Source of the DNA: Escherichia coli
Lineage (GTDB): Bacteria; Pseudomonadota; Gammaproteobacteria; Enterobacterales; Enterobacteriaceae
DNA: 64,000 bases
Assembly (NCBI RefSeq): GCF_050920415.1
Contig: NZ_CP169309.1
Strand: one strand, 5' to 3'
The translations under genes and the position numbers were made by a program. The notes under the pieces are model-generated. The model worked only from the letters and a program-made list of their open reading frames with translations. It was not told the origin of the DNA and did no database searches. Positions within the stretch are counted from its first letter, which is position 1. Each line of letters starts with the position of its first letter. Shown in pieces: positions 24,434 to 48,403 of the stretch.

Positions 24434-24742
24434 ATGGATTATTTAATTCCAGTTTGTCTGGTATTGCTGGGATTGCTCGCGATCTTCACCCCCAATTGGC
24501 TGATCCCTGTTTTTATCGTCGTGGGGGGATGGCTGGGGGTACTTGCCTGGGGTTGGCTCTGGCTAATGATTTTTTTACCTTTACTTAACGGTGTCGGGCT
24601 TGCTTATGCCCTGTGGTTGATGTTCAAAAGGCCATCCATAGCATCCCGCTTGGTTGCTGCATGCTGTGTTATCTCCGTCATTCTGATGTTAGCGCTTTAT
24701 TATGCTTTCCTGACTATGCCGCCGTTCCCGCCTCAGCACTAA
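24434..24742 (+). CDS. Hypothetical small, Trp-rich membrane protein (102 aa, ~3 predicted TM segments)
   Basis: Intergenic ORF MDYLIPVCLVLLGLLAIFTPNWLIPVFIVVGGWLGVLAWGWLWLMIFLPLLNG...; no strong SD, so coding status is uncertain. Confidence 0.35.
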   Translation: MDYLIPVCLVLLGLLAIFTPNWLIPVFIVVGGWLGVLAWGWLWLMIFLPLLNGVGLAYALWLMFKRPSIASRLVAACCVISVILMLALYYAFLTMPPFPPQH

Positions 24743-24774
24743 GCCTGATAGCCAGAGGCTATCAGGCAACACTT

Positions 24775-26973
24775 TTACTTCCTGCGCAACAATCTTAACG
24801 CATTCGCTGTCACCAGCACCGTCGCACCCGTATCTGCCAGCACCGCCAGCCATAGTCCGGTCATCCCTAACAGCGTTGTGACGAGGAAGATCCCTTTCAG
24901 CCCCAGCGCAATGGTGATGTTCTGGCGGATATTGGCGTGAGTGGCGCGTGCCAGTTCAATCATCTGCGCCAGGCCGCGCAGGTGGTTATGGGTTAATGCT
25001 GCGTCGGCGGTTTCCAGCGCCACATCTGTGCCACTGCCCATTGCAATCCCTATGGCGGCAGCTTTCATGGCGGGCGCGTCGTTAATACCGTCACCGACCA
25101 TCGCCAGAGGCGCATGTTGATTCAGCTCGGTCACCGCTTTGACTTTATCTTCTGGTAATAGGCCCGCTTTAAATTCCAGCCCCAGTTCACCGGCGATTGC
25201 CGCCGCTGCGCGTGGATTATCGCCAGTGAGGATCACTCCTTTGACGCCCAGGGCGCTCAGTTCGCTGATGGCAGTTGCGGCGTCGGCGCGCAGGGTATCC
25301 TGCAATGCAATGACACCCAGCACTTCATCGTTACGCACCACCAGTACTACCGTTTGCCCGGCGCTTTCCAGTTCGTTAATTAAACCAGCAAATGCAACAA
25401 CCGGATGTTTTCCGGCAGCGCATATCAACACGCGCTCGCCGTTAATCAGTGCTTCAATACCAGACCCGACCAGCGCCCGCTGTGATTCGGCGGCAGGAAT
25501 GGTTAGCGCAGCGACCTGTGCTTCACGCACAATGGCCTGCGCCAGTGGATGCGTCGCGCCTTGTTCTACCGCCGCTGCCAGCGACAGCAGTTCAGATTCA
25601 CTAATCCCCGTTGCCGGATGAATCGCGGTAACGCGCGGTTTACCGACGGTCAGCGTACCGGTTTTATCAAACGCCACCTGGGTAACACGACCTAGTTGTT
25701 CCAGCGCCGCACCGCCTTTAATCAACGCCCCACGACGCGCTGCTGCCGCCAGCCCGGAGGTAATCGCCGCAGGTGTTGAGATCACCAGCGCACACGGGCA
25801 GCCAATCAGCAGCAGCGTCAGCCCTTTATAAATCCACTCTTGCCAGCTGGCGGCAAACAGCAGCGGCGGCACCAGAGTTACCAGCAGAGCGACCGCCATA
25901 ATCGCTGGCGTGTAAATACGGCTGAAACGGTCGATAAACCGCTCAATCGGCGCGCGGCGCTCTTCGGCTTCTTCGATCAGTTTCAGAATGCGGTCAATGG
26001 CGCTGGCACCCGGTTCTGACAACACTTCCAGGGTAACCAGACGGTCTACGCTGGTGGCGCCTGCAGGAACTTTATCACCCGTCGCGCGCTCCACCGGAAT
26101 GGATTCGCCGGTCAGGGCGCTTTCATCAAAACTGGCAAAGGGCGAGAGCAGTTTACCGTCGGCAGGTAAACGCCCACCTGCCGCAACTTCGATAACATCG
26201 CCCGGACGCAGGCTGTTAATTGCTACCTCTTCACGCTTGCCATTACGCAGGCGCGTGGCGGTTTCCGGTTTCAGCGCCATTAACGCGCTGACCCCTTGAC
26301 GTGCGCGGCTGGCGGCCCAGCCTTCCAGTCGTTCACCAATCAAAAATAGCAGCAACACCATCGCAGCTTCGGCGGTTGCGCCAATAAACAGCGCGCCAAT
26401 GGCGGCTACGCTCATTAACGTTTCAATGGCGAAGTAGCTGCCAGATTTGATCAGTCGTAATGCCTGGCGCGCAATCGGGTACAGCCCAACCAGCGTGGTC
26501 GCGATAAACGCCAGTTGCCCGAACGGATGATTAAACTGCTCCAGACCCCAGCTGATTGCCATCAACACGATTAGCGTAATCAGCGGCAGATTCTCTTTCA
26601 GGCGTGATTCTTGTTGTTCGTCGGCGGACTGTTCATCGCGCAGGGAATAGCCCGCTTTTTGCACCGCAGATTCAACCTGGGCACGGATGTCATTGTCGGC
26701 ATCCACCACCAGTTTTTCGGTGGCGAACAACACCTGCACCTGATTCACGCCTGCAAGCTGGCGCACGGCATTTTCTACCTTGCGCGCACAGGCGGCGCAG
26801 TCCATGCCGCTGACTTTCCAGCTATAGCGGGTGCCGGAGACGTTTTCAGAGAGCGTTGGCGTGCTGGAACATGCGCCGTCGCAGCAACAGTCGTTGGCGT
26901 TCTGAACCGTGGTTAGCGGTTTGAACGCGGCAAATTGAGGGGCTTTCTTGCCGTGATTGTCAGGAGTCGACAT
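24775..26973 (-). CDS. zntA: Zn/Cd/Pb-exporting P1B-type ATPase ZntA
   Basis: 732-aa ORF with N-terminal metal-binding GMDCAAC, CPC transmembrane motif and DKTGT phosphorylation site. Confidence 0.95.
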   Translation of the reverse strand: MSTPDNHGKKAPQFAAFKPLTTVQNANDCCCDGACSSTPTLSENVSGTRYSWKVSGMDCAACARKVENAVRQLAGVNQVQVLFATEKLVVDADNDIRAQVESAVQKAGYSLRDEQSADEQQESRLKENLPLITLIVLMAISWGLEQFNHPFGQLAFIATTLVGLYPIARQALRLIKSGSYFAIETLMSVAAIGALFIGATAEAAMVLLLFLIGERLEGWAASRARQGVSALMALKPETATRLRNGKREEVAINSLRPGDVIEVAAGGRLPADGKLLSPFASFDESALTGESIPVERATGDKVPAGATSVDRLVTLEVLSEPGASAIDRILKLIEEAEERRAPIERFIDRFSRIYTPAIMAVALLVTLVPPLLFAASWQEWIYKGLTLLLIGCPCALVISTPAAITSGLAAAARRGALIKGGAALEQLGRVTQVAFDKTGTLTVGKPRVTAIHPATGISESELLSLAAAVEQGATHPLAQAIVREAQVAALTIPAAESQRALVGSGIEALINGERVLICAAGKHPVVAFAGLINELESAGQTVVLVVRNDEVLGVIALQDTLRADAATAISELSALGVKGVILTGDNPRAAAAIAGELGLEFKAGLLPEDKVKAVTELNQHAPLAMVGDGINDAPAMKAAAIGIAMGSGTDVALETADAALTHNHLRGLAQMIELARATHANIRQNITIALGLKGIFLVTTLLGMTGLWLAVLADTGATVLVTANALRLLRRK

Positions 26974-28174: not shown

Positions 28175-28444
28175 TTATTTTTTAACTTTAAATTTCTTCT
28201 GCCAGACCAGCAGTTCAAACACGCCGAAAAGGAAAATGCGCACCTTTTCGGCGGTGGTCATCTGCGGGCCATCTTTCGGCAAAGTGGATTTCAATAGCGC
28301 CAGCTGCATACCATGCATCAGCACGGTAAAAATCAGCGCCACGTTAACGAAAATATTCAGCGGACGCGGGAAGGGATGCACCAGGTTGAGGATTAAAAAT
28401 CCCCAAACGCAGAGCATTAACAAACGTCCAATATTAATCAACAT
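28175..28444 (-). CDS. yhhL: DUF1145 small membrane protein YhhL (89 aa)
   Basis: Internal ATG giving MLINIGRLLMLCVWGFLILNL...; overlaps rsmD stop by 11 nt. Confidence 0.75.
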   Translation of the reverse strand: MLINIGRLLMLCVWGFLILNLVHPFPRPLNIFVNVALIFTVLMHGMQLALLKSTLPKDGPQMTTAEKVRIFLFGVFELLVWQKKFKVKK

Positions 28445-29030
28445 CACTTTCTCCTTGTGCTTCGCGTTGATACAGCCGATAAGCCACCTGACCCGCCACT
28501 TTTTCCCGATGTAATGACCAGTTCGCCGGAACAGTGGGCAGACCGTTTTCGACTTCGCTTTCGACATAAATCAGGGCTTCGTCAGCCAGCCAGCCGTTAT
28601 CTTCCAGTAAATTTATCGTCTCTTCTAACAAGCCACGGCGGAACGGTGGATCGACAAACACGATATTATGCGGTGTGCCTTTTTGCGCCAGGAATGACAT
28701 CGCGTTGCTGTTCACCACGCGTGCATTGCCTGCTTTTAGTGTCGCCAGATTCTTAATTAACTGCTGAGAAACCGCGCGATCCATCTCAATCAACGTGGCC
28801 CCCGCAGCGTAGCGCGATAACGCTTCCAGCCCCAGCGCGCCGCTCCCGGCGAAGCAATCCAGACATTGGGCATCAACAATGACCGGAGCCAGCCAGTTAA
28901 ACAACGTTTCGCGTACGCGGTCTGTGGTGGGGCGCAGACCTGGGCTATCAGGAACCGGGAGTTTACGGCCTCGCCACTGCCCGCCAATAATGCGGATTTG
29001 GCCGCTGCCGGAATGATTCGGTTTTTTCAT
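28434..29030 (-). CDS. rsmD: 16S rRNA m2G966 methyltransferase RsmD
   Basis: 198-aa ORF with SAM-binding motif (LDCFAGSGALGLEALSR) and DPPF motif. Confidence 0.9.
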   Translation of the reverse strand: MKKPNHSGSGQIRIIGGQWRGRKLPVPDSPGLRPTTDRVRETLFNWLAPVIVDAQCLDCFAGSGALGLEALSRYAAGATLIEMDRAVSQQLIKNLATLKAGNARVVNSNAMSFLAQKGTPHNIVFVDPPFRRGLLEETINLLEDNGWLADEALIYVESEVENGLPTVPANWSLHREKVAGQVAYRLYQREAQGESDVD

Positions 29031-29179: not shown

Positions 29180-30718
29180 ATGGCGAAAGAAAAAAAACGT
29201 GGCTTTTTTTCCTGGCTGGGCTTTGGTCAAAAAGAGCAGACCCCGGAAAAAGAGACAGAAGTCCAGAACGAACAACCGGTTGTAGAAGAAATCGTTCCGG
29301 CGCAAGAGCCTGCGAAGGCTTCTGAACAAGCCGTTGAAGAGCAGCCGCAGGCGCATACTGAAGCCGAGGCGGAAACTTTTGCTGCCGACGTTGTGGAAGT
29401 TACTGAACAGGTTGCTGAAAGTGAAAAAGCGCAGCCTGAAGCTGTTGCTGAACCGGAAGTTATTACTGAGCCGGAAACGATAGTTGAAGAAACGCCAGCG
29501 TCAGTCATTGAACCTGAAGTTACGCCAGAGCCTGTGGCTATCGAGCGTGAAGAGCTGCCGTTGCCGGAAGACGTCAAAGCCGAAGAGGTTTCGCCAGAAG
29601 AGTGGCAGGCCGAAGCGGAAACCGTAGAGATTGTCGAAGCGGCGGAAGAAGAAGCGGCTAAAGACGAAATCACCGACGAAGAGCTGGAAGCACAGGCGCT
29701 GGCTGCCGAAGCGGCAGAAGAGGCGGTGATGGTGGTTCCTCCGGCAGAAGAAGAGCAGCCGGTGGAAGAAATCGCTCAGGAGCAGGAAAAACCGACCAAA
29801 GAAGGTTTCTTCGCGCGCCTGAAACGCAGCCTGTTAAAAACCAAAGAAAACCTCGGTTCCGGATTTATCAGCCTGTTCCGCGGTAAAAAAATCGACGATG
29901 ATCTGTTTGAAGAATTGGAAGAGCAATTGCTCATCGCCGATGTGGGCGTGGAAACCACGCGTAAAATTATCACCAATCTGACAGAAGGTGCGACCCGCAA
30001 GCAGCTTCGTGATGCCGAGGCGCTCTATGGCCTGCTGAAAGAAGAGATGGGTGAGATACTGGCGAAAGTCGATGAACCGCTGAACGTTGAAGGTAAAACG
30101 CCATTCGTGATCCTGATGGTGGGCGTCAACGGTGTGGGTAAAACCACGACGATTGGTAAGCTGGCGCGTCAGTTTGAGCAGCAGGGTAAATCAGTGATGC
30201 TGGCGGCGGGCGATACTTTCCGTGCAGCAGCGGTTGAACAGCTTCAGGTCTGGGGGCAGCGTAATAATATTCCGGTGATTGCCCAGCATACCGGTGCGGA
30301 TTCTGCTTCTGTTATCTTCGACGCCATTCAGGCCGCTAAAGCGCGTAACATCGACGTTCTGATTGCCGATACCGCCGGGCGCCTGCAGAACAAATCGCAC
30401 TTGATGGAAGAGTTGAAGAAAATCGTCCGCGTGATGAAGAAACTCGACGTTGAAGCTCCGCATGAAGTTATGCTGACTATCGACGCCAGTACCGGGCAGA
30501 ATGCAGTAAGCCAGGCCAAACTGTTCCACGAAGCCGTTGGCTTAACCGGCATCACGCTAACGAAACTGGACGGCACGGCGAAAGGCGGGGTAATTTTCTC
30601 GGTGGCTGACCAGTTTGGTATCCCTATCCGCTACATTGGTGTCGGCGAACGTATTGAGGATTTGCGTCCGTTTAAAGCGGACGACTTTATAGAGGCACTT
30701 TTTGCCCGAGAGGATTAA
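29180..30718 (+). CDS. ftsY: Signal recognition particle receptor FtsY (512 aa; acidic A-domain longer than the 497 aa recalled for K-12)
   Basis: MAKEKKRGFFSWLGFGQKEQ N-terminus, acidic E/A/V/P-rich domain, C-terminal SRP GTPase motifs (GVNGVGKTTT, DTAGR). Confidence 0.95.
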   Translation: MAKEKKRGFFSWLGFGQKEQTPEKETEVQNEQPVVEEIVPAQEPAKASEQAVEEQPQAHTEAEAETFAADVVEVTEQVAESEKAQPEAVAEPEVITEPETIVEETPASVIEPEVTPEPVAIEREELPLPEDVKAEEVSPEEWQAEAETVEIVEAAEEEAAKDEITDEELEAQALAAEAAEEAVMVVPPAEEEQPVEEIAQEQEKPTKEGFFARLKRSLLKTKENLGSGFISLFRGKKIDDDLFEELEEQLLIADVGVETTRKIITNLTEGATRKQLRDAEALYGLLKEEMGEILAKVDEPLNVEGKTPFVILMVGVNGVGKTTTIGKLARQFEQQGKSVMLAAGDTFRAAAVEQLQVWGQRNNIPVIAQHTGADSASVIFDAIQAAKARNIDVLIADTAGRLQNKSHLMEELKKIVRVMKKLDVEAPHEVMLTIDASTGQNAVSQAKLFHEAVGLTGITLTKLDGTAKGGVIFSVADQFGIPIRYIGVGERIEDLRPFKADDFIEALFARED

Positions 30719-30720
30719 CA

Positions 30721-31389
30721 ATGATTCGCTTTGAACATGTCAGCAAGGCTTATCTCGGTGGGAGACAGGCGCTGCAGGGCGTTACGTTCCATATGCAGCC
30801 GGGTGAGATGGCGTTTCTGACCGGTCATTCCGGCGCAGGGAAAAGTACCCTCCTGAAGCTGATCTGTGGGATTGAGCGGCCCAGCGCCGGGAAAATCTGG
30901 TTTAGCGGCCATGACATCACGCGTCTGAAAAACCGTGAAGTTCCGTTTCTGCGCCGCCAGATTGGCATGATTTTCCAGGATCACCATCTACTGATGGACC
31001 GTACTGTCTACGATAACGTGGCGATCCCGCTGATTATCGCCGGTGCCAGCGGTGACGATATTCGTCGTCGTGTATCGGCGGCGCTGGATAAAGTCGGGCT
31101 ACTGGACAAAGCGAAGAACTTCCCTATTCAGCTTTCCGGCGGTGAACAACAGCGTGTTGGCATTGCCCGCGCGGTGGTGAACAAGCCCGCGGTACTGCTG
31201 GCGGATGAACCGACCGGTAACCTTGACGACGCGTTGTCAGAAGGAATTCTACGTCTGTTTGAAGAATTCAACCGCGTTGGGGTAACCGTATTGATGGCAA
31301 CGCACGACATCAACCTGATTTCGCGGCGTTCCTATCGCATGCTCACCCTGAGCGATGGTCACTTGCATGGAGGCGTGGGCCATGAATAA
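30721..31389 (+). CDS. ftsE: Cell-division ABC transporter ATP-binding protein FtsE
   Basis: 222-aa ORF with Walker [10 protein letters not shown] and signature LSGGEQQR. Confidence 0.95.
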
Positions 31390-37078: not shown

Positions 37079-38005
37079 ATGTCTGAGCAGTTTTTGTATT
37101 TCTTGCAGCAGATGTTTAACGGCGTCACGCTGGGCAGTACCTACGCGCTGATAGCCATCGGCTACACCATGGTTTACGGCATTATCGGCATGATCAACTT
37201 CGCCCATGGCGAGGTTTATATGATCGGCAGCTACGTCTCTTTTATGATCATCGCCGCACTGATGATGCTGGGCATTGATACCGGCTGGCTGCTGGTGGCG
37301 GCGGGATTCGTCGGCGCAATCGTCATTGCCAGCGCCTATGGCTGGAGTATCGAACGTGTGGCTTACCGCCCGGTGCGTAACTCTAAGCGCCTGATTGCGC
37401 TCATCTCGGCAATCGGCATGTCTATCTTCCTGCAAAACTACGTCAGCCTGACTGAAGGTTCGCGCGACGTGGCGCTACCCAGCCTGTTTAACGGTCAGTG
37501 GGTTGTGGGCCATAGTGAAAACTTCTCTGCCTCTATTACCACCATGCAGGCGGTGATCTGGATTGTTACCTTCCTCGCCATGTTGGCGCTGACAATTTTC
37601 ATCCGCTATTCCCGCATGGGGCGCGCCTGTCGTGCTTGCGCGGAAGACCTGAAAATGGCGAGCCTGCTTGGCATCAACACTGACCGGGTGATTGCGCTGA
37701 CCTTTGTGATTGGCGCGGCGATGGCGGCGGTGGCAGGTGTGCTGCTCGGTCAGTTCTATGGCGTAATTAACCCCTACATCGGCTTTATGGCCGGGATGAA
37801 AGCCTTTACTGCTGCGGTACTCGGTGGGATTGGCAGTATTCCGGGAGCGATGATTGGCGGCCTGATCCTGGGGATTGCGGAAGCGCTCTCTTCTGCCTAT
37901 CTGAGTACGGAATATAAGGATGTGGTTTCATTTGCCCTGCTGATTCTGGTGCTGCTGGTGATGCCGACCGGTATTCTGGGTCGCCCGGAGGTAGAGAAAG
38001 TATGA
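37079..38005 (+). CDS. livH: Branched-chain amino acid ABC transporter permease LivH
   Basis: 308-aa hydrophobic ORF, operon position. Confidence 0.95.
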
Positions 38006-39279
38006 AACCGATGCATATTGCAATGGCGCTGCTCTCTGCCGCCATGTTCTTTGTTCTCGCGGGCGTCTTTATGGGAGTGCAACTGGAGCTGGACGGCACC
38101 AAACTGGTGGTCGATACGGCTTCAGACATCCGATGGCAGTGGGTGTTTATTGGCACTGCGGTGGTCTTTTTCTTCCAGCTTGTGCGACCTGCGTTTCAGA
38201 AAGGGCTAAAAAGCGTTTCCGGGCCGAAGTTTATTCTGCCCGCGATTGATGGCTCCACGGTGAAGCAGAAACTGTTCCTCGTGGCCCTGCTGGTGCTTGC
38301 GGTGGCGTGGCCGTTTATGGTGTCGCGTGGGACGGTGGATATCGCCACCCTGACCATGATCTACATTATCCTCGGCCTCGGGCTGAACGTGGTGGTGGGG
38401 CTGTCTGGCTTACTGGTACTGGGTTACGGTGGTTTTTACGCCATCGGCGCTTACACCTTTGCCTTGCTCAATCACTATTACGGTCTTGGCTTCTGGACCT
38501 GTTTGCCGATTGCCGGGTTGATGGCGGCGGCGGCGGGATTCCTGCTCGGCTTCCCGGTGTTGCGTTTACGTGGCGACTATCTGGCGATCGTTACTCTCGG
38601 TTTCGGCGAAATTGTGCGCATATTGCTGCTCAATAACACGGAAATCACCGGCGGTCCGAACGGAATCAGTCAGATCCCGAAACCGACTCTCTTCGGACTC
38701 GAGTTCAGTCGCACCGCCCGCGAAGGCGGCTGGGATACGTTCAGCAATTTCTTTGGCCTGAAATACGACCCGTCCGATCGCGTCATCTTCCTCTACCTGG
38801 TGGCGTTACTGTTGGTGGTGTTAAGCCTGTTTGTCATTAACCGCTTACTGCGAATGCCGCTGGGCCGCGCGTGGGAAGCGTTGCGTGAAGATGAAATCGC
38901 CTGTCGTTCGCTGGGCTTAAGTCCGCGTCGTATCAAGCTGACCGCCTTTACCATCAGCGCCGCGTTTGCGGGTTTTGCCGGAACGCTGTTCGCGGCACGT
39001 CAGGGATTTGTCAGCCCGGAATCCTTCACCTTTGCCGAATCGGCGTTTGTGCTGGCGATAGTGGTGCTCGGTGGTATGGGCTCGCAATTTGCGGTGATTC
39101 TGGCTGCAATTTTGCTGGTGGTGTCGCGAGAGTTGATGCGTGATTTCAACGAATACAGCATGTTAATGCTCGGTGGTTTGATGGTGCTGATGATGATCTG
39201 GCGTCCGCAGGGCTTGCTGCCCATGACGCGCCCGCAACTCAAGCTGAAAAACGGCGCAGCGAAAGGAGAGCAGGCATGA
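38002..39279 (+). CDS. livM: Branched-chain amino acid ABC transporter permease LivM
   Basis: 425-aa hydrophobic ORF, ATGA overlap with livH. Confidence 0.95.
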
Positions 39280-40043
39280 GTCAGCCATTATTATCTGTTA
39301 ACGGCCTGATGATGCGCTTCGGCGGCCTGCTGGCGGTGAATAACGTCAATCTTGAACTGTACCCGCAGGAGATCGTCTCGTTAATCGGCCCTAACGGTGC
39401 CGGAAAAACCACGGTTTTTAACTGCCTGACCGGTTTCTACAAACCCACCGGCGGCACTATTTTACTGCGCGATCAGCATCTGGAAGGTTTGCCCGGCCAG
39501 CAAATCGCCCGCATGGGCGTGGTGCGCACCTTCCAGCATGTGCGTCTGTTCCGTGAAATGACGGTGATTGAAAACTTGCTGGTGGCGCAGCATCAGCAAC
39601 TGAAAACCGGGCTGTTCTCCGGCCTGTTGAAAACGCCTTCTTTCCGCCGCGCCCAGAGCGAAGCCCTCGACCGTGCCGCAACCTGGCTTGAGCGCATTGG
39701 TTTGCTCGAACACGCTAACCGTCAGGCGAGTAACCTGGCCTACGGTGACCAGCGCCGTCTGGAGATCGCCCGCTGCATGGTAACGCAGCCGGAGATTTTA
39801 ATGCTCGACGAACCAGCGGCAGGTCTTAACCCGAAAGAAACCAAAGAGCTGGATGAGCTGATTGCCGAACTGCGTAACCATCACAACACCACTATTTTGT
39901 TGATTGAACACGATATGAAACTGGTGATGGGGATTTCAGACAGAATTTACGTGGTCAATCAGGGGACGCCACTGGCAAACGGTACGCCTGAGCAAATCCG
40001 TAATAACCCGGACGTGATCCGTGCCTATTTAGGTGAGGCATAA
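39276..40043 (+). CDS. livG: Branched-chain amino acid ABC transporter ATP-binding protein LivG
   Basis: 255-aa ORF with Walker [10 protein letters not shown]. Confidence 0.95.
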
Positions 40044-40044
40044 G

Positions 40045-40758
40045 ATGGAAAAAGTCATGTTGTCCTTTGACAAAGTCAGTGCCCACTACGGCAAAATCCA
40101 GGCGCTGCATGAGGTGAGCCTGCATATCAATCAGGGCGAAATTGTCACGCTGATTGGCGCGAACGGGGCGGGGAAAACCACCTTGCTCGGCACGTTATGT
40201 GGCGACCCGCGCGCCACCAGCGGGCGAATTGTGTTTGATGATAAAGACATTACCGACTGGCAGACGGCGAAAATCATGCGCGAAGCGGTGGCGATTGTCC
40301 CGGAAGGACGTCGCGTCTTCTCACGCATGACGGTGGAAGAGAATCTGGCGATGGGCGGCTTTTTTGCTGAACGCGACCAGTTCCAGGAGCGCATAAAGTG
40401 GGTCTATGAACTGTTTCCACGTCTGCATGAGCGCCGTGTTCAGCGGGCGGGCACCATGTCCGGCGGTGAGCAGCAGATGCTGGCGATTGGTCGCGCGCTG
40501 ATGAGCAACCCGCGTTTATTGTTGCTTGATGAGCCATCGCTCGGTCTTGCGCCGATTATCATCCAGCAAATTTTCGACACCATCGAGCAACTGCGCGAGC
40601 AGGGGATGACTATCTTCCTCGTCGAGCAGAACGCCAACCAGGCGCTAAAGCTGGCAGATCGCGGCTATGTGCTGGAAAACGGTCATGTCGTGCTTTCCGA
40701 TACCGGCGACGCGCTACTGGCGAATGAAGCGGTGAGAAGTGCGTATTTAGGCGGGTAA
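40045..40758 (+). CDS. livF: Branched-chain amino acid ABC transporter ATP-binding protein LivF (237 aa)
   Basis: ATG directly after livG stop; Walker A GANGAGKTT, signature MSGGEQQM. Confidence 0.9.
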   Translation: MEKVMLSFDKVSAHYGKIQALHEVSLHINQGEIVTLIGANGAGKTTLLGTLCGDPRATSGRIVFDDKDITDWQTAKIMREAVAIVPEGRRVFSRMTVEENLAMGGFFAERDQFQERIKWVYELFPRLHERRVQRAGTMSGGEQQMLAIGRALMSNPRLLLLDEPSLGLAPIIIQQIFDTIEQLREQGMTIFLVEQNANQALKLADRGYVLENGHVVLSDTGDALLANEAVRSAYLGG

Positions 40759-40819
40759 TAACACGTTGATTGATAAGGAGTCAAAAGACTCCTTTGAGAC
40801 AGGTTACAAATGTAAAATT

Positions 40820-40918
<99 letters not shown>

Positions 40919-41018
40919 ATGAAACGATGAGCAATCTGTAGAGTTTGATTCAGACCTTCTATTTTTCCCGCTTATCCGTGCCCCATCTCCCAATTTCCCT
41001 CACCTACGCCGTCACTGC

Positions 41019-41094
41019 CTTGTCATCTTTCTGACACCTTACTATCTTACAAATGTAACAAAAAAGTTATTTTTCTGTAATTCGAGCATGTCAT
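41019..41094 (+). promoter_or_regulatory. ugpB promoter region with putative PhoB boxes
   Basis: CTTGTCATCTTTCTGACAC (41019-41037) and CTGTAATTCGAGCATGTCAT (41075-41094) resemble the CTGTCAT-type pho box direct repeat. Confidence 0.5.
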
Positions 41095-41155
41095 GTTACC
41101 CCGCGAGCATAAAACGCGTGAATTCGCGCATTCGGTACAACAAGAGAGATAAACG

Positions 41156-42472
41156 ATGAAACCGTTACATTATACAGCTTCAGCACTGGCGCTCGGACTG
41201 GCGTTAATGGGGAATGCACAGGCAGTGACGACCATTCCGTTCTGGCATTCTATGGAAGGGGAACTGGGTAAAGAGGTGGATTCTCTGGCCCAACGTTTTA
41301 ACGCCGAAAACCCGGATTACAAAATTGTACCGACCTATAAAGGCAACTACGAACAGAATTTAAGTGCGGGGATTGCCGCATTTCGTACCGGCAACGCGCC
41401 TGCTATTTTGCAGGTTTATGAAGTTGGCACCGCCACCATGATGGCGTCGAAAGCCATTAAACCGGTGTATGACGTGTTTAAAGAGGCGGGGATTCAATTC
41501 GATGAGTCGCAGTTTGTGCCGACGGTTTCAGGTTACTACTCCGACAGCAAAACCGGTCACTTACTCTCCCAGCCGTTCAACAGCTCGACTCCCGTTCTCT
41601 ATTACAACAAAGACGCCTTCAAGAAAGCGGGGTTAGACCCGGAACAGCCGCCGAAAACCTGGCAGGATCTGGCAGACTATGCCGCGAAACTGAAAGCCTC
41701 TGGTATGAAGTGCGGCTACGCCAGCGGCTGGCAGGGCTGGATCCAACTGGAAAACTTTAGCGCCTGGAACGGTCTGCCGTTTGCCAGCAAAAACAACGGC
41801 TTTGACGGCACGGACGCGGTGCTTGAGTTCAACAAGCCGGAGCAGGTGAAACACATCGCCATGCTCGAAGAGATGAACAAGAAGGGCGATTTCAGTTACG
41901 TAGGGCGTAAGGATGAATCTACCGAGAAGTTCTATAACGGTGATTGCGCGATGACGACCGCCTCTTCGGGTTCTCTTGCCAACATTCGCGAGTACGCCAA
42001 ATTCAACTACGGCGTAGGCATGATGCCATACGACGCCGACGCGAAAGATGCGCCACAAAACGCCATTATCGGCGGAGCCAGCCTGTGGGTGATGCAGGGC
42101 AAAGATAAAGAAACTTACACCGGCGTGGCGAAGTTCCTCGACTTCCTCGCGAAGCCAGAAAACGCTGCCGAGTGGCATCAGAAAACCGGTTATCTGCCAA
42201 TCACCAAAGCGGCGTATGACCTGACCCGTGAGCAGGGCTTTTACGAGAAAAACCCAGGGGCGGATACCGCGACGCGTCAGATGCTGAACAAGCCGCCGTT
42301 GCCGTTCACCAAAGGGCTGCGTCTGGGCAATATGCCGCAGATCCGCGTGATTGTGGATGAAGAGCTGGAAAGCGTGTGGACCGGTAAGAAGACGCCACAG
42401 CAGGCGCTGGATACCGCTGTTGAGCGTGGGAACCAGTTACTGCGCCGCTTTGAGAAATCTACGAAGTCTTAA
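41156..42472 (+). CDS. ugpB: Periplasmic sn-glycerol-3-phosphate binding protein UgpB
   Basis: 438-aa ORF with signal peptide [23 protein letters not shown]. Confidence 0.95.
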
Positions 42473-42482
42473 CCAGTGAAAT

Positions 42483-42550
42483 GTCGGATGCGTTTCGCTT
42501 ATCTGACCTGGCATCGCGTGTAGGCCGGATAAGCGAAGCGCATCCGGCAC
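42483..42550. repeat. REP pair (BIME) between ugpB and ugpA
   Basis: GTCGGATGCGTTTCGCTTATCTGACC and GTAGGCCGGATAAGCGAAGCGCATCCGGCAC. Confidence 0.7.
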
Positions 42551-42569
42551 AGTTCAGGAATTAACCGTA

Positions 42570-43457
42570 ATGTCATCATCCCGTCCGGTGTTCCGCTCGC
42601 GCTGGCTGCCTTATTTGCTGGTCGCGCCGCAGCTTATCATCACCGTTATCTTTTTTATCTGGCCTGCGGGCGAAGCGTTGTGGTACTCGCTACAAAGCGT
42701 CGATCCGTTTGGCTTTTCCAGCCAGTTTGTCGGCCTGGATAACTTCGTCACGCTGTTTCATGACAGCTACTATCTCGACTCCTTCTGGACGACGATAAAA
42801 TTCAGCACCTTTGTCACGGTCAGCGGTTTGCTGGTGTCGCTGTTCTTCGCGGCGCTGGTGGAGTATATCGTGCGCGGCAGCCGTTTCTATCAAACCTTAA
42901 TGCTGCTGCCGTATGCCGTGGCTCCCGCCGTTGCCGCCGTATTGTGGATCTTCCTGTTTAACCCTGGTCGCGGGCTGATCACTCATTTTCTCGCTGAGTT
43001 CGGCTACGACTGGAACCATGCGCAAAACAGCGGTCAGGCAATGTTCCTGGTGGTGTTTGCCTCAGTATGGAAGCAAATCAGCTACAACTTTCTGTTCTTC
43101 TATGCCGCGCTGCAATCCATTCCCCGTTCGTTGATTGAAGCCGCAGCCATCGACGGTGCAGGCCCGATTCGCCGCTTCTTTAAGATTGCGCTGCCGCTTA
43201 TCGCCCCGGTGAGCTTCTTCCTGCTGGTGGTGAACCTGGTGTACGCCTTCTTCGATACCTTCCCGGTGATCGACGCCGCCACGTCCGGCGGGCCAGTACA
43301 GGCCACCACGACGCTGATTTATAAGATCTACCGCGAAGGCTTTACCGGACTGGATTTGGCTTCATCTGCCGCGCAGTCGGTGGTGTTGATGTTCCTCGTC
43401 ATCGTGCTGACGGTGGTGCAGTTCCGCTATGTTGAAAGCAAGGTGCGTTACCAATGA
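42570..43457 (+). CDS. ugpA: sn-glycerol-3-phosphate ABC transporter permease UgpA
   Basis: 295-aa hydrophobic ORF, operon position. Confidence 0.95.
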
Positions 43458-44299
43458 TTGAGAACCGTCCGTGGCTGACAATATTCAGCCATACCATGCT
43501 GATCCTCGGGATCGCGGTGATCCTCTTCCCGCTGTACGTGGCGTTTGTCGCGGCGACGCTGGATAAACAGGCCGTCTACGCCGCGCCGATGACGCTCATC
43601 CCCGGCACGCATCTGCTGGAAAATATCCACAACATCTGGGTGAACGGGGTAGGCACAAATAGCGCGCCGTTCTGGCGGATGTTGCTTAACAGCTTCGTGA
43701 TGGCGTTCAGCATTACGCTCGGCAAAATTACCGTCTCGATGCTCTCGGCATTTGCCATTGTCTGGTTTCGTTTTCCGCTGCGTAACCTCTTCTTCTGGAT
43801 GATTTTTATCACCCTTATGCTGCCGGTTGAAGTGCGTATCTTCCCGACAGTAGAAGTCATCGCCAACCTGAAAATGCTTGACAGCTACGCTGGTTTAACG
43901 CTGCCGCTGATGGCCTCTGCGACCGCTACTTTCTTGTTCCGCCAGTTCTTTATGACGCTGCCGGATGAGCTGGTGGAAGCGGCGCGGATCGACGGTGCAT
44001 CACCAATGCGTTTCTTTTGCGACATCGTTTTTCCGCTGTCGAAAACCAATCTGGCGGCGCTGTTTGTGATCACTTTTATTTACGGCTGGAACCAGTATTT
44101 GTGGCCGTTGTTGATTATTACCGATGTTGATCTCGGCACCACCGTGGCAGGAATCAAAGGGATGATCGCTACAGGCGAAGGCACCACGGAATGGAATTCG
44201 GTGATGGCGGCGATGTTGTTAACGCTTATCCCTCCGGTGGTGATTGTTTTAGTGATGCAGCGTGCCTTCGTGCGCGGCCTGGTCGATAGTGAGAAATAA
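43454..44299 (+). CDS. ugpE: sn-glycerol-3-phosphate ABC transporter permease UgpE
   Basis: 281-aa hydrophobic ORF, ATGA overlap with ugpA. Confidence 0.95.
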
Positions 44300-44300
44300 G

Positions 44301-45371
44301 ATGGCAGGACTGAAATTACAGGCAGTAACCAAAAGCTGGGATGGCAAAACCCAGGTCATTAAACCGCTGACCCTTGATGTGGCGGATGGCGAATTTATCG
44401 TGATGGTCGGGCCGTCTGGCTGCGGGAAATCCACGCTGCTGCGCATGGTTGCCGGGCTGGAGCGGGTCACCGAAGGCGATATCTGGATTAACGACCAACG
44501 CGTGACCGAAATGGAGCCGAAAGATCGCGGGATTGCGATGGTGTTCCAGAACTACGCGCTTTATCCGCATATGAGTGTCGAAGAAAACATGGCGTGGGGG
44601 CTGAAAATTCGCGGCATGGGCAAGCAACAAATTGCCGAGCGTGTTAAAGAAGCGGCGCGCATTCTGGAGCTGGACGACCTGCTCAAGCGCCGTCCGCGTG
44701 AGCTTTCTGGCGGTCAGCGTCAGCGTGTAGCGATGGGCCGCGCGATTGTGCGCGATCCGGCGGTGTTCCTGTTTGATGAGCCGCTCTCTAACCTCGATGC
44801 CAAGCTGCGCGTGCAGATGCGCCTTGAGCTGCAACAACTGCACCGTCGCCTGAAAACGACTTCACTCTACGTTACTCACGATCAGGTTGAGGCGATGACG
44901 CTCGCTCAGCGGGTTATGGTGATGAACGGCGGCGTTGCCGAACAGATTGGCACGCCAGTTGAAGTCTACGAAAAGCCCGCCACTCTGTTTGTGGCGAGTT
45001 TTATCGGCAGTCCGGCGATGAACCTGCTGACAGGCCGCGTGAATAACGAAGGCACGCATTTCGAACTGGATGGCGGTATCGCGCTACCGCTAAACGGTGG
45101 CTACCGTCAGTATGCCGGGCGTAAAATGACTCTTGGCATTCGCCCGGAACATATTGCGTTAAGCTCGCAGGCAGAAGGCGGCATACCGCTGGTGATGGAC
45201 ACGCTGGAGATCCTCGGCGCAGATAACCTGGCGCACGGACGCTGGGGCGAACAGAAGCTGGTGGTGCGACTGGCGCATCAGGAGCGCCCGACGACAGGCA
45301 GCACGCTGTGGCTGCATCTGCCGGAAAATCAGCTGCATCTTTTTGATGGTGAAACAGGACAACGAGTATGA
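44301..45371 (+). CDS. ugpC: sn-glycerol-3-phosphate ABC transporter ATP-binding protein UgpC (356 aa)
   Basis: [15 protein letters not shown]...; Walker [10 protein letters not shown], signature LSGGQRQR. Confidence 0.9.
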
Positions 45372-46111
45372 GTAACTGGCCTTATCCCCGCATCGTCGCC
45401 CACCGTGGCGGCGGTAAACTGGCCCCGGAAAACACCCTGGCGGCAATCGACGTTGGGGCAAAATACGGTCATAAGATGATCGAATTTGACGCGAAGTTAT
45501 CGAAAGATGGTGAGATCTTCCTGCTTCATGACGACAATCTCGAACGCACCAGCAACGGCTGGGGCGTCGCGGGCGATCTGAACTGGCAGGATTTACTGCG
45601 CGTGGATGCAGGCAGTTGGTACAGCAAAGCGTTTAAAGGTGAGCCGCTGCCGTTGCTTTCGCAGGTGGCGGAACGCTGCCGTGAACATGGGATGATGGCA
45701 AATATTGAAATCAAACCCACCACTGGCACTGGTCCATTAACGGGCAAAATGGTATCGCTGGCGGCGCGCGAACTGTGGGCTGGTATGACGCCGCCGCTGC
45801 TGTCATCGTTTGAGATTGATGCTTTAGAAGCCGCACACCAGGCTGCACCGGAACTGCCGCGCGGTTTGTTGCTGGATGAGTGGCGCGACGACTGGCGCGA
45901 ACTGACCACGCGGCTGGGCTGCGTCTCTATTCATCTCAATCATAAGTTGCTCGATAAAGCGCGAGTGATGCAGTTGAAAGACGCTGGATTACGGATTCTG
46001 GTTTATACCGTCAACAAACCCCAGCGTGCGGCAGAGTTGCTGCGCTGGGGCGTGGATTGCATCTGTACCGATGCGATTGATGTGATTGGCCCGAACTTTA
46101 CGGCCCAATAG
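45368..46111 (+). CDS. ugpQ: Glycerophosphodiester phosphodiesterase UgpQ
   Basis: 247-aa ORF; GDPD-family N-terminus ([19 protein letters not shown]). Confidence 0.95.
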
Positions 46112-46538
46112 TTTTCAACGGAATATCAGGCTGCGGCGTGCTGGGCTGATTCAGCATGTCGCCGTTTCTCCTCTCCGGCAACATATGCTGCTGATTCAAC
46201 GAACTATCCGGATTACGGTTGCTGTTTAACATCCCGCCGTTGGTGTTGGGCAGCATTTGCTGCCGGGCGGGATTTAGCTCCCCCGGCTGTGACTGCAATA
46301 CCCGCTGCGAGTTGCTATTAAGCTGATTTTCTAAATGCTGCTGTTGTAATTGCGTCTGAGTTTTCAGTTGCTGATTCAGCATCCCTTTTTGCTGGATTTG
46401 CTGCGTTTGCATTTGAGTTTGCATCCGCTGCTGGCTGGGGATCTGATACCCCGGCTGGTTAGGGTTGTTCAGAGTATTAATGGGCTGTGCAAAGCCGACA
46501 AAAGGCAGGAGTGCCGTCAAAAGCAGAAGTCGTTTCAT
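46098..46538 (-). CDS. yhhA: Gln-rich secreted protein YhhA (DUF2756)
   Basis: 146-aa ORF with signal peptide [17 protein letters not shown] and low-complexity Q-rich body; 3' end overlaps ugpQ 3' end by 14 nt. Confidence 0.75.
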
Positions 46539-46657
46539 CGCGTATCCTCCTCTGAAGATATTCTTTAAGTTTACTCCTTTCCTGCAATCATCAGGATTAA
46601 TTCAGAGTTATATACCAGGCTTAGCTGGGGTTGCCCCTTAATCTCTGGAGTATAACG

Positions 46658-48403
46658 ATGATAAAACCGACGTTTTTACGCCGGGTGGCTATTGCTGCTC
46701 TGCTCACAGGAAGTTGTTTTAGTGCTGTCGCCGCGCCACCTGCGCCGCCGCCAGTCTCGTATGGCGTGGAGGAGGATGTCTTCCATCCGGTACGCGCGAA
46801 GCAGGGGATGGTAGCATCTGTGGACGCCACTGCCACTCAGGTGGGGGTAGATATCCTTAAGCAGGGCGGGAATGCCGTTGATGCTGCCGTGGCAGTGGGC
46901 TACGCGCTGGCGGTAACACATCCGCAGGCAGGGAATCTGGGCGGCGGCGGTTTTATGCTGATCCGCACTAAAGATGGCAATACCACCGCCATCGATTTCC
47001 GCGAAATGGCACCCGCCAAAGCGACCCGCGATATGTTCCTTGATGATCAGGGCAACCCGGACAGCAAAAAATCTCTCACTTCGCATCTTGCTTCTGGCAC
47101 ACCCGGTACGGTAGCGGGCTTCTCGTTGGCGCTGGAGAAATACGGCACCATGCCGCTGAACAAAGTTGTGCAGCCTGCGTTTAAACTGGCACGCGATGGT
47201 TTTATCGTTAACGATGCGCTGGCAGACGATCTCAAAACCTACGGCAGTGAAGTGCTACCAAATCACGAAAACAGCAAAGCTATCTTCTGGAAAGAGGGCG
47301 AACCGCTGAAAAAGGGCGACAAGCTGGTACAGACGAATCTGGCAAAGAGCCTGGAGATGATTGCCGAAAACGGCCCGGATGAATTCTACAAAGGCACGAT
47401 AGCGGAACAGATCGCCCTGGAGATGCAGAAAAACGGTGGCTTGATCACTAAAGAAGATTTAGCGGCCTATAAAGCGGTCGAACGTACACCAATAAGTGGC
47501 GATTATCGCGGGTATCAGATTTACTCCATGCCACCGCCATCCTCCGGCGGGATCCATATCGTACAGATCCTCAATATTCTGGAAAACTTCGATATGCAGA
47601 AATACGGCTTTGGCAGCGCCGATGCGATGCAAATCATGGCAGAAGCGGAGAAATACGCCTACGCCGACCGCTCGGAATATCTTGGCGACCCGGATTTTGT
47701 CAAAGTACCGTGGCAGGCGCTGACCAATAAAGCCTATGCCAAATCTATTGCTGATCAAATCGATATCAATAAAGCGAAGCCATCCAGCGAAATTCGCCCC
47801 GGCAAGCTTGCGCCTTATGAGAGTAATCAAACTACCCATTACTCTGTAGTGGATAAAGACGGTAACGCGGTGGCGGTGACCTATACGCTGAACACCACCT
47901 TCGGTACGGGTATTGTCGCGGGTGAGAGCGGTATTCTGCTTAATAATCAGATGGATGATTTCTCCGCCAAACCGGGCGTACCGAACGTTTACGGGCTGGT
48001 GGGTGGTGATGCTAACGCTGTCGGGCCGAATAAACGCCCGCTGTCGTCGATGTCACCAACCATTGTGGTCAAGGATGGTAAAACCTGGCTGGTCACCGGA
48101 AGCCCAGGTGGTAGCCGGATTATCACCACTGTGCTGCAAATGGTGGTGAACAGCATCGATTATGGCATGAATGTCGCCGAAGCGACCAATGCGCCGCGTT
48201 TCCACCATCAGTGGTTGCCGGACGAGCTGCGTGTCGAGAAAGGATTTAGCCCGGATACGCTCAAGCTGCTGGAAGCAAAAGGTCAGAAAGTGGCGCTAAA
48301 AGAGGCGATGGGCAGTACACAAAGCATTATGGTTGGGCCGGACGGCGAATTGTATGGCGCTTCCGACCCACGTTCGGTAGATGATTTAACGGCGGGGTAT
48401 TAA
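46658..48403 (+). CDS. ggt: Gamma-glutamyltranspeptidase Ggt
   Basis: ATG with GGAG SD; signal peptide MIKPTFLRRVAIAALLTGSCFSAVAA; autoprocessing-site region ...NQTTHYSVVD. Confidence 0.95.
   Translation: MIKPTFLRRVAIAALLTGSCFSAVAAPPAPPPVSYGVEEDVFHPVRAKQGMVASVDATATQVGVDILKQGGNAVDAAVAVGYALAVTHPQAGNLGGGGFMLIRTKDGNTTAIDFREMAPAKATRDMFLDDQGNPDSKKSLTSHLASGTPGTVAGFSLALEKYGTMPLNKVVQPAFKLARDGFIVNDALADDLKTYGSEVLPNHENSKAIFWKEGEPLKKGDKLVQTNLAKSLEMIAENGPDEFYKGTIAEQIALEMQKNGGLITKEDLAAYKAVERTPISGDYRGYQIYSMPPPSSGGIHIVQILNILENFDMQKYGFGSADAMQIMAEAEKYAYADRSEYLGDPDFVKVPWQALTNKAYAKSIADQIDINKAKPSSEIRPGKLAPYESNQTTHYSVVDKDGNAVAVTYTLNTTFGTGIVAGESGILLNNQMDDFSAKPGVPNVYGLVGGDANAVGPNKRPLSSMSPTIVVKDGKTWLVTGSPGGSRIITTVLQMVVNSIDYGMNVAEATNAPRFHHQWLPDELRVEKGFSPDTLKLLEAKGQKVALKEAMGSTQSIMVGPDGELYGASDPRSVDDLTAGY

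Follow-up and report, generated by a model that had tools for sequence, protein, structure and literature searches.

In Escherichia coli K-12, the A-domain of the SRP receptor FtsY is acidic and has been described as "poorly conserved" (PMC5533587, PMC2064314). FtsY contacts the membrane through two motifs, alphaA1 (residues 1-14) and alphaN1, and its A-domain stabilises the binding to SecY (PMC5533587, PMC2064314). The acidic body of the domain inhibits stable membrane engagement (PMC5533587), and growth is supported by FtsY-NG+1, which is without the A-domain (PMC5533587, PMC2064314).

We analysed the ftsY gene in a 64,000-nt stretch of E. coli DNA (contig NZ_CP169309.1), called the window below, for which a preliminary description made from the sequence had reported an FtsY with an expanded acidic A-domain. 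We consider the gene to be an intact and functional ftsY, encoding the bacterial SRP receptor and standing first in ftsYEX, that carries a minority natural allele whose difference in length is likely neutral; we put the probability of this reading at about 85%.

Identity and integrity of the gene

The gene, its domain core and its neighbours are placed as follows.

28434..29030, - strand: rsmD, the divergent neighbour upstream (open reading frame list and annotation of syntenic records)
29180..30718, + strand: ftsY coding sequence, SRP receptor (open reading frame list; TIGR00064; identity to WP_001040621.1)
29852..30703, + strand: NG core, with the SRP54_N helical bundle at residues 225-290 and the SRP54 GTPase domain at residues 308-508 (PF02881, PF00448, G motifs)
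30721..31389, + strand: ftsE (open reading frame list and annotation of the syntenic K-12 and SMS-3-5 records)

In the program-made list of open reading frames, 29180..30718 (+) encodes 512 aa followed by a stop codon. The next gene of the ftsYEX operon, ftsE, starts 2 nt past that stop codon, and the order rsmD <> ftsY-ftsE-ftsX-rpoH is collinear with the loci annotated in K-12 and SMS-3-5. Against TIGR00064, the NCBIfam ftsY equivalog model with a cutoff of 260.7, the protein reaches 385.9 bits; against the ffh model it reaches 233.7, which is under that model's own cutoff of 473.2. The Pfam matches are to PF02881 (SRP54_N, 4.5e-15) and PF00448 (SRP54 GTPase, 5.2e-80). The naming of the gene as ftsY in the preliminary description is thus borne out by the equivalog score, the NG domains and the operon context.

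K-12 FtsY from the PDB aligns to the window protein from end to end (E=4e-294). The G motifs GVNGVGKTT (315), DTAGR (397) and TKLD (461) are intact and agree with K-12 at the matching positions, and the window gene shows no premature stop, frameshift or loss of a G motif. Every testable defining feature of the FtsY family was found, and the protein is a full member of that family. From the near-identity of its NG domain to that of the characterised K-12 protein, we infer that it would dock SRP-ribosome complexes at the membrane or SecYEG in a GTP-dependent manner. The MFDS1022581 gene (WP_001040621.1) has 100% DNA identity to the window gene, and the window DNA is identical to that strain.

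An antisense open reading frame at 29227..29673 (148 aa, rich in Ser, Thr and Ala) was set aside as a side effect of the GAA/GCN richness of the sense strand and is not treated as a gene.

Fifteen additional residues relative to K-12

The preliminary description had given a length of 497 aa for the K-12 protein, and this length was right (PDB 5gad_l and 2yhs_A; MG1655 record). When the 512-aa window protein was aligned pairwise with K-12 FtsY, the lengths were not identical but differed by +4, +10 and +1 residues. All 15 extra residues lie inside the N-terminal acidic A-domain, in agreement with the low-complexity location first proposed for them.

29444..29455, + strand: +4 piece, V89 A90 E91 P92, 12 nt (alignment)
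29492..29521, + strand: +10 piece, T105-V114, TPASVIEPEV, 30 nt (sequence and alignment)
29693..29695, + strand: +1 codon, Q172 (alignment; the K-12-type 497-aa class is without it)

The 12-nt piece is missing in the K-12, GPEC859, TUM12368, 1190 and PSJ-07 alleles. The placement of the +10 piece is one of eight equivalent registers, an alternative reading being PASVIEPEVT, and the 30-nt piece has at its borders a direct repeat of 7 nt, ACGCCAG (29492-29498 and 29522-29528). At the third site the window has ELEAQAL where K-12 has ELET-AL; the Q is kept by all other aligned alleles and species, and it is the 497-aa class of K-12 type that has lost a residue, not the window that has gained one.

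Compared with K-12 FtsY (WP_001040654.1; PDB 2YHS, 5GAD), the window protein therefore has 15 more residues at three A-domain sites and 13 substitutions in total. It is encoded by the same gene at the same operon position, its domains come in the same order, and alphaA1, alphaN1 and the G motifs do not differ. From GFFARLK to the C-terminus the length equals that of K-12, and 2 of 304 codons carry amino-acid-changing differences.

Layout and conservation of the A-domain

29180..29803, + strand: acidic A-domain, 208 residues up to GFFARLK (composition; no Pfam domain)
29180..29221, + strand: alphaA1, N-terminal lipid-binding motif, residues 1-14 (MAKEKKRGFFSWLG; identical to K-12; role from PMC5533587)
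29804..29866, + strand: alphaN1, amphipathic lipid-binding helix at the A/N junction, residues 209-229 (GFFARLKRSLLKTKENLGSGF; identical to K-12 residues 194-214; role from PMC5533587)

With the motifs defined as in PMC5533587, the enterobacterial-type layout is present, with an acidic A-domain between alphaA1 and alphaN1. The window A-domain holds 63 D+E against 13 K+R, for a net charge of -50, and consists to 77% of E, A, V, P, Q and T and to 30% of D+E. The A-region of K-12 has 193 residues and a net charge of -46, and its composition is the same (30% D+E, about 77% E/A/V/P/Q/T). A Pfam search of the window FtsY left the A-domain without any domain match.

Conservation was judged from an alignment of 23 Enterobacteriaceae FtsY sequences, made up of 5 E. 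coli alleles and 18 others. Across these 23 sequences, residues 1-20 and 201-512 are near-invariant, and almost all positions of alphaN1 are invariant. Conservation is at its lowest in the protein at residues 89-120, where the majority identity is about 0.25 and every column contains gaps. Beside this hot spot are conserved islands at residues 67-83 and 122-130, then at 140-150 and 165-174, and the linker itself sits between the conserved islands FAADVVEVTEQVAESEK and EREELPLPE. In the NG domain, the window gene differs from other E. coli alleles at 32-44 synonymous codons and at 1-2 amino-acid-changing ones, and this excess of synonymous differences indicates strong purifying selection.

An AlphaFold2 model of the window FtsY, built from the 23-sequence alignment, has a mean pLDDT of 47, with even the N-domain below 50. 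The A-domain has pLDDT values of 26-45, and the hot spot, at about 28, is without secondary structure; because the model is poor overall, it supports disorder weakly. Helices are modelled at residues 2-12 (at low confidence), 61-81, 166-175 and 207-221, which agrees with the conserved islands, though as weak evidence.

FtsY length among E. coli genomes

The preliminary description had proposed a survey of A-domain length across E. coli, and the survey showed that FtsY length does vary, with forms of 458, 495, 497, 498, 506 and 512 aa. The gene is present in all but one of 5,426 complete E. coli genomes. Lengths were tabulated for 40 rows taken systematically across the full ranking of genomes.

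1497 nt (498 aa): 22/40 sampled genomes
1494 nt (497 aa, K-12 type): 13/40 sampled genomes
1488 nt (495 aa): 3/40 sampled genomes
1539 nt (512 aa): 1/40 sampled genomes
1377 nt (458 aa): 1/40 sampled genomes

The commonest length in this sample is 498 aa and not 497. A further class of 1521 nt (506 aa) comprises at least 11 genomes, and probably all 25 genomes of the 90-95% identity band. Other departures lie elsewhere in the A-domain, where TUM12368 FtsY is missing 3 residues and PSJ-07 FtsY (458 aa) has a natural 40-aa deletion.

The long block of the window (described below) was found in 49 of the 5,426 complete genomes (0.9%), at 98-100% identity, and the ftsY genes of all 49 are 1539 nt long. 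The whole-gene identity of these carriers to the window ftsY is at least 99% for 18, 97.1-98.1% for 5 and about 96.8-96.9% for 26, including SMS-3-5. The SMS-3-5 protein (WP_001040624.1) is likewise 512 aa, and its hot-spot block differs from that of the window at 1 position in 105 nt; outside the block, the two genes differ at 47 nt and their proteins at 8 residues.

A search of a 5.8-billion-protein database with the A-domain as query returned mostly truncated or frameshifted fragments; it gave no separate long-form cluster and was of use only for a few outgroup sequences. A literature search on ftsY length polymorphism or E. coli length classes found nothing relevant, though its coverage was incomplete and such reports may exist. 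RefSeq already lists an identical protein, and the variability of the A-domain is well known; the allele is an ordinary one.

A divergent block at the linker

29436..29540, + strand: hot-spot haplotype block, about 105 nt, in which long and short alleles differ (genome survey and alignment)

Long and short alleles are separated in this block by two in-frame indels and by changes at 11-13 of the 63 alignable nucleotides (17-21%), whereas in the A-domain outside the block they differ by only 1-3%. Of the 21 codons that can be compared, 4 differ synonymously and 5-6 in the amino acid encoded. Because synonymous differences are raised in the block along with non-synonymous ones, the pattern points to deep allelic divergence or to low-complexity misalignment, and not merely to relaxed constraint. 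The haplotype makes the linker 14 residues longer and the A-domain as a whole more negative by 4 charges.

The preliminary description had drawn attention to repeated segments, EPEVITEPETIVEETP and EPEVTPEPVAIE, and had suggested variation in repeat number. Both strings are present, at residues 91 and 111 of the window FtsY, yet their repetition is marginal. Within the hot spot, the strongest in-frame internal repeat corresponds to the likeness of EPEVITEP to EPEVTPEP and is identical at 21 of 30 positions with a spacing of 60 nt; it reaches p~0.01 only against codon shuffles of the hot spot itself and does not stand out when the whole A region is the reference. At its lowest threshold (minimum score 30), TRF found no tandem repeat in 29436-29540, and its sole match in the A-domain is a 15-nt unit of 2.2 copies at 29636-29668. 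Head-to-tail, near-identical units were thus not found at the variable site, by TRF or in the best pair of 21/30. Nor do the alleles differ by whole repeat units only, since 12-nt and 30-nt indels are accompanied by 11-13 substitutions, with 9-10 changed codons between the indels. The suggestion of repeat-number variation is accordingly not upheld, and by these comparisons the long allele is a compound haplotype rather than a change in repeat copy number. Similar weak internal matches occur all through the GAA-rich sequence.

The hot-spot site is slippage-prone all the same. The allele of strain 1190 (WP_001040616.1, 506 aa) carries a perfect 24-nt tandem duplication, with QPEAEVVA present twice, on a short-type background; the hot spot is the same as in the window and the mechanism is another, the true duplication being found in 1190 only of the two. 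The PSJ-07 deletion and the strain 1190 duplication together show that in-frame A-domain indels arise and persist.

Comparison with other Escherichia species

Species-representative genomes were scanned with a degenerate pattern for EEWQAEAETVE, which gave 33 Enterobacteriaceae loci. The complete Enterobacteriaceae proteins range from 468 to 510 aa, with 164-206 residues before GFFARLK and a constant 304 from there. Within Escherichia, we compared the linker that joins SEKAQPEA to TPEPVAIE.

Escherichia sp. E1V33 (509 aa): linker 26 aa; both pieces, AVIE... and SPAPVVEPEV
Window and SMS-3-5: linker 26 aa; both extra pieces
E. albertii: linker 18 aa; 4-aa piece and 2 of 10 residues of the second
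Escherichia sp. MOD1-EC7003: linker 18 aa; 4-aa piece and 2 of 10 residues of the second
E. coli strain 1190: linker 20 aa; neither piece, with an 8-aa duplication instead
E. coli K-12: linker 12 aa; neither piece

E1V33, E. albertii NBRC 107761 (504 aa) and MOD1-EC7003 (486 aa) all have, like the window, a 4-aa piece after QPEA, and in E1V33 the segment SPAPVVEPEV is the homologue of the 10-aa piece of the window. The three differ from the window in that the block is 11-22% divergent in DNA (11% for MOD1-EC7003 and 22% for E1V33) and in having further indels elsewhere in the A-domain. No recent donor species for the block was seen among the species sampled.

Judged from this distribution, the 12-nt piece is ancestral to the genus Escherichia. 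The evidence on the polarity of the 30-nt piece is mixed, in that it is present in E1V33 and mostly missing in E. albertii and MOD1-EC7003; either it goes back at least to the split from E1V33 or it has been exchanged with the E1V33 lineage. Since the extra pieces occur in other Escherichia, contraction is the more likely history of the common E. coli form, and by parsimony over few taxa the long form is probably the older. The word "expanded" in the preliminary description therefore has the polarity wrong in all likelihood. The 497- and 498-aa forms most likely derive from the old long architecture by in-frame deletions, and indels in the linker could arise where low-complexity DNA slips or recombines unequally. 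A 30-nt piece with a 7-nt direct repeat on its flanks is what replication slippage would predict.

Lineage and history of the long allele

The window differs from K-12 by 4.4% over 35 kb, and its relatives are MFDS1022581, N96, RMDEC465, EC42405 and 2013C-4282. The idea that the window represents a very divergent "cryptic clade" was dropped, since K-12 and SMS-3-5 are already 3.5% apart in the same region; the window therefore represents only a minority deep lineage, and we make no clade claim. The possibility that 2013C-4282 has a narrow tract of recombination at ftsY was ruled out, that genome being about 98% identical to the window over all 28 kb compared.

Two other histories for the long allele were weighed against the retention of an old architecture. 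In one, a K-12-like allele would recently have gained copies of a short PE-rich repeat by slippage. The region is indeed built of degenerate units resembling P-E-x-V/I-x-E, the ACGCCAG repeat stands on both sides of the 30-nt piece, and both the 21/30 internal repeat, at its local p~0.01, and the perfect duplication of strain 1190 at the same hot spot are of the kind that such a process would leave. The hot spot holds no TRF array, however, its internal similarity is not significant across the whole A region, and the extra pieces do not amount to whole copies of a neighbouring unit. The long and short blocks are moreover 11-13 substitutions apart, and the change is therefore not recent; the pieces are also already present in other Escherichia species. 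We regard a recent gain of repeat copies as quite improbable.

In the other history, the long block or the whole allele would have been brought in by recombination from another Escherichia lineage and then have spread, rather than being retained vertically. Nearly the same block (no more than 2 differences in 105 nt) stands on ftsY backgrounds that are about 3% apart elsewhere, such as the window and SMS-3-5 types, which differ by 2-3.7% outside the block; the 35 kb around it is a mosaic, with divergence that varies from 0.2 to 8% between segments; and E1V33 has the two-indel architecture as well. Against this, a close donor is absent among the sampled species, the blocks of MOD1-EC7003 and E1V33 being 11% and 22% divergent, and the single difference in 105 nt between the window and SMS-3-5 compares with about 3 expected from the gene-wide divergence, a shortfall that is not significant. 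Introgression seems to us unlikely on balance, though it deserves to be taken seriously, and as it concerns history only it is compatible with our main explanation of the feature and its role.

Functional significance of the longer linker

On the reading that we prefer, of an intact ftsY with a natural length allele, the extra 14 residues would make a flexible acidic spacer longer and have no effect on function. The haplotype leaves the lipid-binding motifs, the conserved islands of the A-domain and the NG GTPase all untouched. The difference in length is most likely neutral or almost neutral under selection, as the linker would act only as a flexible acidic spacer. In principle, the extra acidic residues could slightly shift the balance of membrane engagement, since the acidic A-domain inhibits stable membrane engagement (PMC5533587).

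That possibility can be carried further, to functional tuning or balancing selection in which linker length and charge adjust the engagement of the membrane or SecYEG and each haplotype is favoured in some backgrounds or niches. The haplotypes are deeply diverged, synonymous sites included, and cross species boundaries, and the A-domain is known to modulate membrane engagement and to stabilise SecY binding (PMC5533587, PMC2064314). The long form is rare, however (0.9%), the hot spot is the least constrained site in FtsY and is free to vary in length among species, and both a natural 40-aa deletion and removal of the A-domain (NG+1) are tolerated; the apparent divergence, too, may be inflated by low-complexity alignment. 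We find selection of this kind very improbable, and give a shade less credence still to an old trans-species polymorphism in an essential gene, kept because linker length or charge would tune the auto-inhibition of membrane/SecYEG engagement differently from lineage to lineage.

The biological weight of the natural length allele is very small, lying as it does in a poorly conserved and largely dispensable domain. The K-12 length of 497 aa should not be taken as the norm of the species, in which 498 aa was the commonest length sampled within a range of 458-512 aa, and residue numbers of A-domain constructs are not transferable from strain to strain. Residues 89-120 are mapped as a linker that tolerates indels in nature and has conserved A-domain islands on either side, and this map could help in choosing where to insert tags or engineer linkers in FtsY. 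The only remainder of some mild interest is the deep two-haplotype structure that Escherichia species have in common.

Sequence divergence and gene content around ftsY

Over the syntenic 35 kb (window 14000-48400), the window is 95.6% identical to E. coli K-12 and 95.8% identical to strain SMS-3-5, which are 96.5% identical to each other over the same interval; identity to strain 2013C-4282 is 98.2%. Examined in 500-nt segments, window 14000-48400 is a mosaic in which divergence runs from 0.2% up to 8-11%, with examples at 15000-15500, 25000-26500, 38000-39000 and 46500-47500. For window 40000-46000, identity of >98% with full coverage was found only in strains MFDS1022581, N96, RMDEC465 and EC42405.

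Synteny with K-12 stops on either flank, before window position ~13980 and after ~48400. The region upstream of nikR holds rhsB/yhhH in K-12 and a PTS/FGGY-kinase cluster in SMS-3-5; 2013C-4282 lacks nik and acpT, and carries an acyl-carrier/ketosynthase/MMPL cluster upstream of yhhT. Two intervals inside the syntenic region also differ in content. For ~570 nt between tusA and zntA (window 24210-24780) K-12 gives no alignment, whereas SMS-3-5 and 2013C-4282 can both be aligned and each have a small hypothetical protein annotated at that place. The livF-ugpB interval (window 40758-40973) is only ~215 nt, as in K-12, whereas SMS-3-5 and 2013C-4282 have a ~750-nt gene here, its product annotated either as hypothetical or as a tetratricopeptide-repeat protein.

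Unusual ftsY alleles and an antisense ORF

Three further features of ftsY loci were recorded:

E. coli PSJ-07 ftsY locus (L006), 301-1677: natural 458-aa ftsY allele in which 40 residues, EEWQAEAETVE... through ...AAEAA, are deleted in frame
ENA metagenome scaffold (L008), 435-1949: E. albertii-like ftsY with an in-frame stop after codon 412, giving two called genes
Window, 29227-29673, minus strand: antisense ORF of 148 aa, Ser/Thr/Ala-rich, wholly inside the ftsY A-domain coding region

The PSJ-07 deletion removes a block that is near-invariant across Enterobacteriaceae, and yet the annotation of this complete genome gives the gene as intact. The stop in the metagenome scaffold probably stems from an error in sequencing or assembly. 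The antisense ORF does not look like a gene, and appears instead to be a side effect of GAA/GCN-rich codons, whose complement contains no stops.

Divergence within ftsY

Outside the variable hot spot, DNA encoding the acidic N-terminal A-domain (29180-29435 and 29541-29803) diverges from other E. coli alleles by 0.7-2.7%, well below the 3.5-5.3% of DNA encoding the NG domain, the GTPase core (29804-30718). Hot spot aside, the A-domain is the less divergent part in DNA, though its protein is the less constrained. Near-identity to other E. coli alleles (0-0.8%) returns over the final ~200 nt of ftsY and the beginning of ftsE. This uneven divergence across the A-domain, NG domain and ftsY-ftsE junction probably reflects recombination mosaicism.
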